Positions 62,699-64,000 of a stretch of 64,000 nt of DNA are shown one piece after another. Each line of letters begins with the position of its first letter. Position 1 is the stretch's first letter. Made by a program: the position numbers and the translations under genes. Under the pieces are notes generated by a model. The model worked only from the letters and a program-made list of their open reading frames with translations, was not told the DNA's origin and ran no database searches. This DNA comes from Leptospiraceae bacterium (lineage in GTDB: Bacteria > Spirochaetota > Leptospiria > Leptospirales > Leptospiraceae): the NCBI GenBank assembly GCA_016711485.1, contig JADJSX010000013.1, forward strand, positions 150,889 through 214,888. Direction: 5' to 3'.

Positions 62699-63832
62699 AT
62701 GGAAAAAGAACAAGAACTGAATATTTCCGCTATCCAAACTAAAATGGCAACATTGGGTTTTAGTCAATCTTCGCTTGCTACCAAACTAGATGTGTCCAAA
62801 GAAATCGTATCTAAATGGCTGTCTGGGAAAAAGTTTCCACGTCCTTTGCATCTATTCAAATTAGCACAGATACTTTTATTAAAATTCGAGGAGATTTTAA
62901 TTACTCTTCCCGATCCTAATACGCCTGTTGTCGCTTATAGAAAAAATAAAAATTCCAAAACTAAAGACGAACATATTTTAAAAGCACAAGAAATGGGTCG
63001 CTACTTAAAAAATTTAGTTCCCTTTTTGCCTTTTGATGTTTCGTATAAACCGGCTACCCTTTTGAATCCGAGAAATGATTTTTCTTATATTCAAAAAGAG
63101 GCACACAAAGTTCGCGCATCTTTTAAATTAAATCCAGATGATATTTTGGATTCACAAAAAATCTTACAACTATTCTCGGAATATCATGCTGTCATTATTC
63201 CTGTTCTCTGGGGCGACAAAAAAAATCACGACAATGCCCTTCATATATATTTGCCAGACTCAAGAACTACCTGGATTTATCTAAATCTAAATAGCAATCA
63301 ATATGATTTTAAATTTTGGATGATCCATGAGTTTGCACATATTTTGGCAACCGATTTGACCGGAGAGGAAGGAGAGGATTTTGCAGATGCGTTTGCGGCA
63401 GAACTGTTGTATCCTATCAGTGTTGCCGAAATGGATTACGCTCTTATTCAAGAGAATCCAGCAAAAGCAATCAGTATTATTTTAAAAATAGCTAAGAAGT
63501 TTGAAGTTTCGCCTGTTACAGTCGAAAAACAAATCAATAAATTTGCAACATTGCATAAAAAAGACAAGTTGAAAATAAACATTCATCCAACTGCGACTAA
63601 TTTCAATAAGTCTTCCAAGACAATCGCTGAGCTTCTATTTAAAACCAATCAGCCATTAGCAAAAGATTTCATTTCTATTTCTAGCAAACATTTCAAAACA
63701 GATGTCTTTTCCGTTTTGCGTTCCTATTATAAAAGCGAAAATTATTCTACAGGGTATCTCCAAAATATTTTCAATCTTACTTTCATTGATGCAAAATCAA
63801 TTTTGGATGAAATTCAACATGGCACAAAGTAG
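62699..63832 (+). CDS. XRE-family HTH fused to ImmA/IrrE-type zinc metallopeptidase (RmrA-like)
   Basis: HTH MATLGFSQSSLATKLDVSKEIVSKWLSGKK; HExxH MIHEFAHIL plus downstream EDFADAFAAELL. Confidence 0.75.
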   Translation: MEKEQELNISAIQTKMATLGFSQSSLATKLDVSKEIVSKWLSGKKFPRPLHLFKLAQILLLKFEEILITLPDPNTPVVAYRKNKNSKTKDEHILKAQEMGRYLKNLVPFLPFDVSYKPATLLNPRNDFSYIQKEAHKVRASFKLNPDDILDSQKILQLFSEYHAVIIPVLWGDKKNHDNALHIYLPDSRTTWIYLNLNSNQYDFKFWMIHEFAHILATDLTGEEGEDFADAFAAELLYPISVAEMDYALIQENPAKAISIILKIAKKFEVSPVTVEKQINKFATLHKKDKLKINIHPTATNFNKSSKTIAELLFKTNQPLAKDFISISSKHFKTDVFSVLRSYYKSENYSTGYLQNIFNLTFIDAKSILDEIQHGTK

Positions 63833-64000
63833 AATTCTTATAGATACAAATTCTTATTTAAGAATTGCATCTGTGATTCATCCTCTTCTACGACAAGAAT
63901 TTGGAGTAGAAAAATATTGTATCTATTCCCTGCCTGATTTAGAAAAAGAAATGACAAACAATCTTGAACTACAATCTAAATTCAAGTGGTTTATGGAATC
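63819..64000 (+). CDS. partial ORF, PIN-like/DUF4411-like protein (5' end only, runs off the window)
   Basis: MAQSRILIDTNSYLRIASVIHPLL: N-terminal hhhDTN motif of PIN-fold nucleases; overlaps upstream gene by 14 bp. Confidence 0.35.
   Translation, partial: MAQSRILIDTNSYLRIASVIHPLLRQEFGVEKYCIYSLPDLEKEMTNNLELQSKFKWFME

Follow-up and report, generated by a model that had tools for sequence, protein, structure and literature searches.

A co-inherited gene pair encoding an XRE-ImmA/IrrE peptidase and a PIN-fold nuclease, a putative toxin-antitoxin-like module nested between mod and res genes in a Leptospiraceae genome

Proteins that join a helix-turn-helix (HTH) domain to an ImmA-type peptidase are among the commonest regulators or antitoxins of defence islands. 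RosmerTA, a toxin-antitoxin (TA) system with such an antitoxin, defends against phage, and an rmrA deletion mutant was untransformable, possibly from toxicity (10.1101/2022.05.11.491447; PMC10440598). The Rosmer toxin was described as of unknown function (Millman et al. 2022, 10.1101/2022.05.11.491447), and a characterised RmrT toxin depolarises the membrane (Ernits et al. 2023, PMC10440598); the latter authors also reported ImmA antitoxin hubs associated with PIN-like domains. A link of Xre-COG2856 fusions to PIN toxins was reported by Makarova et al. (2009, PMC2701414), and Matelska et al. (2017, PMC5499597) described HTH-DUF955 proteins together with DUF4411, COG2405, PIN_14, PIN_20 or PIN_26. 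The gene pair described here belongs to this kind of module, predicted since 2009. It was found in a Leptospiraceae bacterium (assembly GCA_016711485.1), in the 64,000-nt stretch of contig JADJSX010000013.1 that was analysed (positions 150,889 to 214,888 of the forward strand, hereafter the window), and consists of a gene for a 377-aa fusion of an XRE HTH to an ImmA/IrrE (M78) zinc peptidase, followed by a gene for a 182-aa PIN-fold nuclease that crosses the window's end (Table 1).

A first-pass annotation, made from the letters alone, had called the 377-aa protein a fusion of an XRE HTH and an ImmA/IrrE domain with an HExxH motif, which was borne out by Pfam: HTH_3 matched at residues 19-65 (E 1.2e-7, 32.1 bits, cut-off 23) and Peptidase_M78 (PF06114 / COG2856) at residues 176-279 (E 1.3e-7, 31.9 bits, cut-off 22). 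Assignment to the XRE/Cro-C1 HTH family (PF01381) held on both the above-threshold profile match and the HTH fold. The HEFAH motif was intact (residues 210-214, nt 63326-63340), and the zinc/catalytic set comprised H210-E211-F-A-H214 plus the downstream acidic residues E226 and D230; E211, H214, E226 and D230 were kept in 83 of 83 homologues, and H210 in 82 of them. The AlphaFold model (predicted local distance difference test score, pLDDT, 91.1) showed an N-terminal five-helix HTH (approximately residues 1-66), a linker, an alpha/beta peptidase core (150-285) and an all-helical C-terminal domain (296-374). The peptidase fold resembled the solved members IrrE/PprI and CapP, and the nearest solved structures to the protein were ImmA/ImmR, CapP/CapH and phage repressors. 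The linker was less confidently modelled around residues 80-90; three of its residues, P76, A79 and R81, were invariant in a 40-sequence alignment, and the segment that holds them is a candidate self-cleavage or docking site. The exact 377-aa sequence was deposited as MBK8395922.1 ('ImmA/IrrE family metallo-endopeptidase'), from a Leptospiraceae metagenome-assembled genome (MAG). In a third near-identical assembly (L093:760-1891, coverage ~2x), the gene was called as two open reading frames (ORFs) of 79 and 300 aa, probably through a sequencing error.

The second gene was confirmed to overlap the first by 14 nt (63819-63832), as first annotated. Its ORF, whose product begins MAQSRILIDTNSYL / MAQSRILIDTNSYLRIASVIHPLL, leaves the window after 60 codons, and these 60 residues matched no Pfam or PADLOC model, so that the PIN assignment required the full-length protein. 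The extension past position 64000 that the first-pass annotation had proposed was obtained from contig L001, found by an exact-sequence look-up of the 377-aa protein that returned two short contigs; L001 is 100% identical to the window over 61651-64000 and reaches 1.2 kb further. It encodes the complete 182-aa protein, and 12 nt beyond the stop codon begins a gene whose product has a ResIII helicase domain. MBK8395923.1 ('DNA-binding protein'), deposited from the same Leptospiraceae MAG source, is a 182-aa sequence that differs from the L001 copy by one residue. A word-indexed search with the PIN protein found 10 relatives only, and an exhaustive profile search 510 cluster representatives at E <=1e-3; full-length relatives measured ~180-205 aa among the 150 matches listed. 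Since each protein of the pair has full-length homologues by the hundred, chance can be dismissed as the origin of either ORF.

In the confident AlphaFold model of the 182-aa protein (pLDDT 90.8), helices are inserted at about residues 40-94 and a further helical extension forms the C-terminus. All 50 matches listed by Foldseek against the PDB were PIN proteins (HARP protein-only RNase P, VapC, FitB, Nob1, Nmd4), and the family profile, searched against PDB sequences, matched Nob1/VapC6 (E 6e-5) and HARP (E 1e-3). Residues D9 (in ILIDTN), E44, D104 and D122 were invariant in 83 of 83 homologues, position 121 being always D or E, and these four are the canonical PIN acidic tetrad, the residues that the first-pass annotation had wanted checked in the complete ORF. 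The D9 and E44 codons lie at 63843-63845 and 63948-63950, and those of D104 and D122 past the window's end. The fold of the full-length protein thus upheld the predicted PIN-type nuclease and not the DUF4411 label given with it: DUF4411 (PF14367) gave no match at E up to 10. Neither the DUF4411 nor the PIN models matched the 182-aa protein itself; in a one-by-one Pfam scan of 65 relatives, 26 weakly matched PIN (PF01850; best E 8e-6), 10 PIN_5 and only 2 DUF4411. The 182-aa protein is therefore a PIN-fold nuclease outside DUF4411. Its homologue in a second Leptospiraceae lineage (L094, 46% identical) had no PADLOC match at E up to 0.001.

A one-genome-per-species scan gave 238 PIN relatives, and the counts of genome loci given in this text refer to the best 80 of them. 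In 80 of 80, from many phyla, a partner recognised by its hidden Markov model lay directly upstream of the PIN gene on the same strand, at a gap of -22 to +27 nt; co-conservation, on which the first-pass annotation had made its proposal depend, was thus found throughout. The partner was full length in 77 loci, cut by contig ends in two and multiply frameshifted in one (L021). Likewise, every metagenome neighbourhood retrieved for PIN relatives had a 375-382-aa HTH gene immediately upstream. The overlap of the two genes, 14 nt in the window, is 1 nt in most relatives. Between the two proteins, pairwise distances were strongly correlated (Pearson r = 0.955, 83 pairs; reached by 0 of 999 Mantel permutations), and this correlation together with the constant adjacency indicates that the pair is inherited as one unit without partner swapping. 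Its distribution was patchy and horizontally mobile. A copy ~40% identical to the window pair occurred in 54 of 5,426 complete Escherichia coli genomes (>=99% identity among strains), where it was annotated only as 'HTH protein' and 'hypothetical protein' (PIN homologue WP_001136617.1, partner WP_001172094.1). The pair was Tn7-like transposon cargo in 5 of the 80 genome loci; other mobile settings were integrase islands and one E. coli IncF plasmid.

The two genes also share a conserved upstream region. The spacer between mod and the HTH-peptidase gene measures 56 nt and holds a 30-nt block, GTCTAAAGAGTTGACAAAAGTTGACGATAC, that is 100% identical between the window and a further Leptospiraceae locus (L003), against ~76% identity for the loci overall; the repeat core AGAGTTGACAAAAGTTGACGATA was also found in L094. 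On its sequence motifs, this spacer is predicted to carry the promoter of the pair. A generic promoter/terminator scan missed it, and the sites that the scan returned were no more numerous than in shuffled sequence. When the 120 nt upstream of the partner start codon were aligned for the 80 loci, a tandem repeat of the form [CG]TTGAC-N4-[CG]TT[GT]AC was present in 75, starting 29-50 nt before the partner ATG in 74 of these. The motif occurred 75 times in total in the 2.5 Mb of the 80 loci, both strands counted, and is therefore essentially confined to the position upstream of the pair. Three of the five exceptions held doubled variant half-sites (AGTTTAC x2, AGTTAAC x2, AGTAAAC x2), so both copies of the repeat change together, and the same three loci also differed in the recognition helix of the HTH protein (SKE to TKT or SKA); a fourth held a near-variant, GTTGAC then GTTAAC. 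The first repeat formed the -35 box in 46 loci, followed at a distance of 16 nt by a TATACT-type -10 box. In 38 loci (e.g. L014, L026, L049) the predicted -10 box ended 6 nt before the HTH-peptidase ATG, from which a leaderless mRNA is predicted; Leptospiraceae copies, that of the window included, carried a Shine-Dalgarno sequence rather than the leaderless layout. The HTH domain presumably autorepresses the promoter of the pair.

Compared with the described systems, the pair resembles RosmerTA in two respects: its antitoxin-type protein has the same architecture (N-terminal XRE HTH and ImmA/M78 peptidase, about 370-400 aa), and the two genes form an operon among defence genes. The best PADLOC matches of the 377-aa protein were to RmrA models (E 1.6e-10 and weaker), followed by capP (E 9e-5); eight RmrA models matched weakly (E 1.6e-10 to 0.013, <=38 bits, often with partial coverage), on a scale that has no curated cut-off in PADLOC. 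The difference lies in the 182-aa PIN protein, which matched no RmrT family or other PADLOC model. Of the RosmerTA assignment made in the first pass, the RmrA resemblance was thus recovered in weak form, and membership of the catalogued system was not shown. The predicted three-component Xre-COG2856(DUF955)/PIN TA systems share with the pair a fused HTH-DUF955 gene with HExxH, upstream of a single-domain PIN-like gene that has four acidic residues and is co-transcribed with it. They differ in the PIN clade, which is here not DUF4411 and leans to PF01850 and PIN_5; an attempt to map it onto the unnamed clusters of Matelska et al., such as PIN_14, gave no assignment.

In CapH/CapP of CBASS (cyclic oligonucleotide-based antiphage signalling systems), ImmR/ImmA of ICEBs1 and DdrO/IrrE of Deinococcus, repressor and protease are separate proteins and control other genes, whereas the pair joins both in one protein, and of the genes downstream only that for the PIN nuclease is constant. 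VapB antitoxins are small and bind DNA through AbrB-, RHH-, Phd- or MerR-type domains. Unlike these, the upstream partner of the PIN gene is here a 377-aa HTH protein that bears an enzyme domain, and a canonical VapBC system was rejected on antitoxin type. The PIN protein itself is, at 182 aa, larger than VapC, with the helical insertion and extension, and resembles PIN_5/HARP and Nob1 as much as VapC. A literature search with the protein accessions of the pair found nothing. In the literature consulted, no description was found of this particular PIN clade, for which Pfam and PADLOC have no model, of its one-to-one partnership with a 375-382-aa HTH-peptidase, of the tandem-repeat operator and predicted leaderless promoter, or of nesting at a UvrD-Mod-Res junction. 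A profile built from this PIN family would annotate about 500 protein clusters now without a Pfam or PADLOC model.

Taking these features together, the pair is probably an autonomous, horizontally mobile TA-like module of the Rosmer/ImmA type, serving most likely in abortive infection or addiction. Its genes are adjacent, co-oriented, overlapping and co-inherited, with a patchy mobile spread, as in a generic type II TA module. In the mechanism that we propose, the HTH domain would bind the tandem repeats and repress its own promoter, while the fusion protein would keep the PIN RNase inactive, probably via its helical C-terminal domain. On the model of CapP/CapH, ImmA/ImmR and IrrE/DdrO, a signal that stems from a phage or from damage would switch on the M78 peptidase; single-stranded DNA is the signal that activates CapP. 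The peptidase could then cleave the fusion, possibly in the invariant linker P76-x-x-A79-F-R81-K, which would de-repress the operon and free the PIN nuclease. The latter might cut cellular RNA (tRNA or rRNA, like VapC, Nob1 and HARP) and so arrest the infected cell. This scheme draws on the three precedents, which are cited in PMC2701414, PMC5499597 and PMC10440598, and on the failure to obtain an rmrA deletion mutant in RosmerTA (10.1101/2022.05.11.491447). The pair offers a tractable case for HTH-ImmA proteins: the partner is always the same, the catalytic residues of both proteins are conserved, the operator is short and conserved, and near-identical copies occur among E. coli strains.

Several points weigh against this reading. 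For the pair, toxicity, neutralisation, protease activity, DNA binding and phage defence are at this stage predictions. The full-length 182-aa protein had no Pfam match above threshold, the best being 5_3_exonuc_N at E 0.07, and at E up to 10 it matched none of the PADLOC models, those for RmrT among them. A tblastn search of 50,697 phage records returned no member of the pair. The direct repeat could be a duplicated -35 box, since HTH proteins usually bind palindromes. Ratios of nonsynonymous to synonymous substitution rates (dN/dS), computed against L003 and L094, had low values (0.05 and 0.24), but with dS saturated (0.97 to >3) they support 'below 0.3' at most. Lastly, in one of the 80 loci, a gammaproteobacterial MAG (L021:8829-10555), the HTH-peptidase gene was broken by about five frameshifts and the adjacent PIN gene was apparently intact, which is unexpected for a lethal toxin unless the assembly is in error; either the frameshifts are assembly errors or the PIN gene is tolerated without its partner.

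The pair had been placed at the edge of a defence island, and actually lies inside a five-gene cassette (UvrD-nuclease, Mod, HTH-M78, PIN, Res), between mod and res. The same five-gene order was found in two further Leptospiraceae lineages (L003 and L094), and the order with the UvrD-nuclease gene first was common to L003, L094, L095, L096 and most of 80 metagenome loci holding Res relatives (L099-L178). In these metagenome loci UvrD usually abutted Mod, and Mod abutted Res (gap <=85 nt) in 63 of the 66 that had both genes; an insert of 3.1 kb separated them in two of the three exceptions, and in the third the gap was 167 nt and Res matched in part. Other small modules occupied the same junctions. 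Those between mod and res included a complete minimal CBASS in a Spirochaetota locus (L095:8509-9991; cyclase E 7e-103; 2TM/Cap15-like effector E 1e-60), with gaps of 3-10 nt to its flanks, while an MNT-HepT pair lay between UvrD and Mod in L127. Further junction inserts encoded GmrSD_N, an AAA_15/21 ATPase and a 300-aa protein (L126, L135), or an AriA/AbiL-like ATPase and a 227-aa protein (L094). Since other small modules are present at the junctions of this normally compact operon, the pair is best seen as a swappable insert, and regulation of the operon by it is unlikely. The range of modules taken up there (CBASS, MNT-HepT, ATPase modules, the pair) bears on how composite defence islands are assembled.

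Table 1. Positions of the gene pair, its predicted control elements and the flanking cassette genes (window coordinates)
Feature	Position	Strand	Remarks
UvrD-family helicase fused to PD-(D/E)XK nuclease, 928 aa, first cassette gene	56729..59515	+	Pfam
Type III Mod-like N6/N4 DNA methyltransferase gene, interrupted by an insertion sequence (IS)	59518..62642	+	coding parts 59518-60585, 61785-62642
IS element in mod, 1,190 bp	60586..61775	+	DDE_Tnp_1 / DDE_Tnp_1_assoc transposase; imperfect terminal inverted repeats
Tandem direct repeat GTTGAC-AAAA-GTTGAC, 10-nt period	62652..62667	+	candidate operator for the HTH domain; overlaps the -35 box
Predicted sigma-70-type promoter	62653..62680	+	-35 TTGACA 62653-62658; 16-nt spacer; -10 TAGTTT 62675-62680
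Shine-Dalgarno GGAGG	62687-62691	+	after the predicted promoter of the pair
XRE-HTH + ImmA/IrrE (M78) zinc-peptidase fusion gene	62699..63832	+	377 aa; predicted antitoxin and autorepressor
5' part of PIN-fold nuclease gene, predicted toxin	63819..64000	+	60/182 codons; ATG start at 63819

In this genome the two genes that flank the pair are interrupted. The IS element in mod was flanked by a 9-bp target-site duplication, GGTCTAGAT, at 60577-60585 and 61776-61784, and removal of the element with one copy of the duplication restored a 641-aa ORF without internal stops. Its transposase was split into two overlapping ORFs (60648-61424 and 61411-61761), through either a frameshift mutation or programmed frameshifting; the window holds only this one copy of the element. 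Beyond the window, res followed its L003 homologue to codon 247 and then met a stop. Inverted terminal repeats, AGAGTTGTTGCAAAATT, were present at the tail of L001 (L001:3470-3591) and at the head of L097 (L097:1-123), a second contig of the same assembly that carries res onward in frame. The terminal repeats AGAGTTGTTGCAAAATT and the in-frame continuation of res on L097 indicate that a second IS interrupts res just past the window, and three independent assemblies break at the codon-247 point. The IS of mod was considered as the sequence that breaks res and was rejected, there being no match between them; a second, different element is hence involved. The host mod/res system was thus inactivated twice, in mod and in res, while the small pair stays intact, with both genes full length and all key residues present. 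A small module can thus outlast the inactivation of its host system.

The alternative that survives best, although an unlikely one, makes the pair a guard of restriction in the manner of PrrC, whose association with EcoprrI is the precedent for a restriction-coupled guard: the PIN protein would be a back-up suicide effector tied to its restriction-modification (RM) neighbours and freed when a phage disables restriction. Recurrence beside RM systems fits this, as do the nesting between mod and res in three Leptospiraceae lineages and the distance of only 3-12 nt from the PIN stop to the res start. Moreover, 25 of the 80 genome loci had at least one Type I RM gene match (HsdM, HsdS or HsdR) within 10 kb, and in 15 the pair lay directly upstream of an hsdM-hsdS-...-hsdR operon, closely followed by hsdM and hsdS, with hsdR ~3.5 kb further. 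However, the RM queries used matched nothing in the remaining 55 loci, the RM partners are of unrelated types, and the pair has its own promoter/operator everywhere. The same slots host CBASS and MNT-HepT, which fits ordinary defence-island clustering, and here mod and res on either side of the pair have been inactivated, the pair itself being intact. There is only a slight probability that the guard is wired in the specific sense that the peptidase senses failed or inhibited restriction, for example through anti-restriction proteins or single-stranded DNA from the helicase-nuclease, and releases the PIN RNase as a second line; such wiring, if true, would explain both the nesting in Type III-like systems of Leptospiraceae and the placement before Type I operons in Gammaproteobacteria.

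The Type I loci showed further features. Among them, L008:8859-20558 and L098 (E. coli plasmid NZ_OX030731.1, 32017-40869) carried between hsdS and hsdR a PsyrTA-like pair of genes, one for a DprA-like protein and one for a RecQ-like helicase, which in L008 also bears a PRTase domain. In this gammaproteobacterial block a single Type I RM system is accompanied by two TA-like modules, and the pair-hsdM-hsdS-hsdR block was sometimes Tn7 cargo.

It is less probable still that the pair is the switch of a mobile element, that is, a fused ImmR/ImmA- or cI-like repressor-protease that governs induction of an element or prophage, with the PIN gene as the first gene under its control. ImmA/ImmR, CapP/CapH and phage repressors are indeed the closest solved structures, some copies lie beside integrases or in Tn7 transposons, and Xre-COG2856 operons are abundant in prophages (PMC2701414). 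Against these stand the lack of a match in the 50,697 phage records and the position of the pair as cargo at variable sites with no fixed set of mobility genes alongside. Furthermore, no integrase or phage gene was called in the Leptospiraceae loci examined, window included, and the downstream gene always belongs to the same PIN family.

The proposal of the first-pass annotation that the pair could regulate the adjacent helicase-nuclease operon fared poorly. As a controller of the UvrD-Mod-Res operon, the HTH-peptidase would time res like the C-protein of an RM system, with the PIN protein as an accessory. Its resemblance to C-proteins is generic to XRE HTH domains. The operon occurs without the pair in essentially all other lineages, with Mod abutting Res, and the UvrD, Mod and Res queries gave no match near the pair in any of the 80 other pair-bearing genomes, all outside Leptospiraceae. 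The role would also leave the strictly co-inherited PIN nuclease and the conserved peptidase site unexplained. With a conserved promoter/operator of the pair's own, and mod and res disrupted by IS elements, such control is highly improbable. Hardly more credible is a non-toxic stress regulator with an RNA-processing enzyme, a miniature IrrE/DdrO-like damage regulon without an addiction or defence role, given the patchy mobile spread (54 of 5,426 E. coli genomes, Tn7 cargo, plasmid) and the consistent position among defence genes, which is a TA/defence signature and not a housekeeping one.

The cassette that hosts the pair was also characterised. Its 928-aa first protein matched UvrD-helicase (E 4.5e-57), UvrD_C and PDDEXK_1 (E 2.6e-20) in Pfam. 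Both halves of the interrupted mod matched N6_N4_Mtase in Pfam and MTase_III in PADLOC (E 1e-75 and 1e-48); Mod matched MTase_III at E 6e-92 and also the EcoP15I Mod structure. The Res family is large (about 1,070 aa), with a ResIII/SWI2_SNF2 helicase and an invariant nuclease motif (P835-D836 ... E849-x-K851), and matched neither a PDB sequence nor, at a significant level, any REase_III model of PADLOC. Compared with Type III RM systems, the cassette additionally has the UvrD-nuclease gene and an S24-like C-terminal domain on Res, the latter present in some Res members. The widespread and compact UvrD-nuclease/Mod/Res operon may represent an undescribed RM-like defence type with two junctions that accept modules. 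In the Res protein of L003 (L003:7415-10645), residues 935-1066 matched Peptidase_S24 (LexA/UmuD-like; Pfam E 7e-11, 42 bits, cut-off 23).

Upstream of the cassette, an isolated GroEL C-terminal fragment with a AAVEEGIVPGGG-type tail was found at 56176-56379, the frame upstream of it being full of stop codons; it lies between dnaE and the defence cassette and seems to be what is left of a groEL 3' end. A strong terminator-like hairpin lies downstream of this fragment, at 56484-56511.

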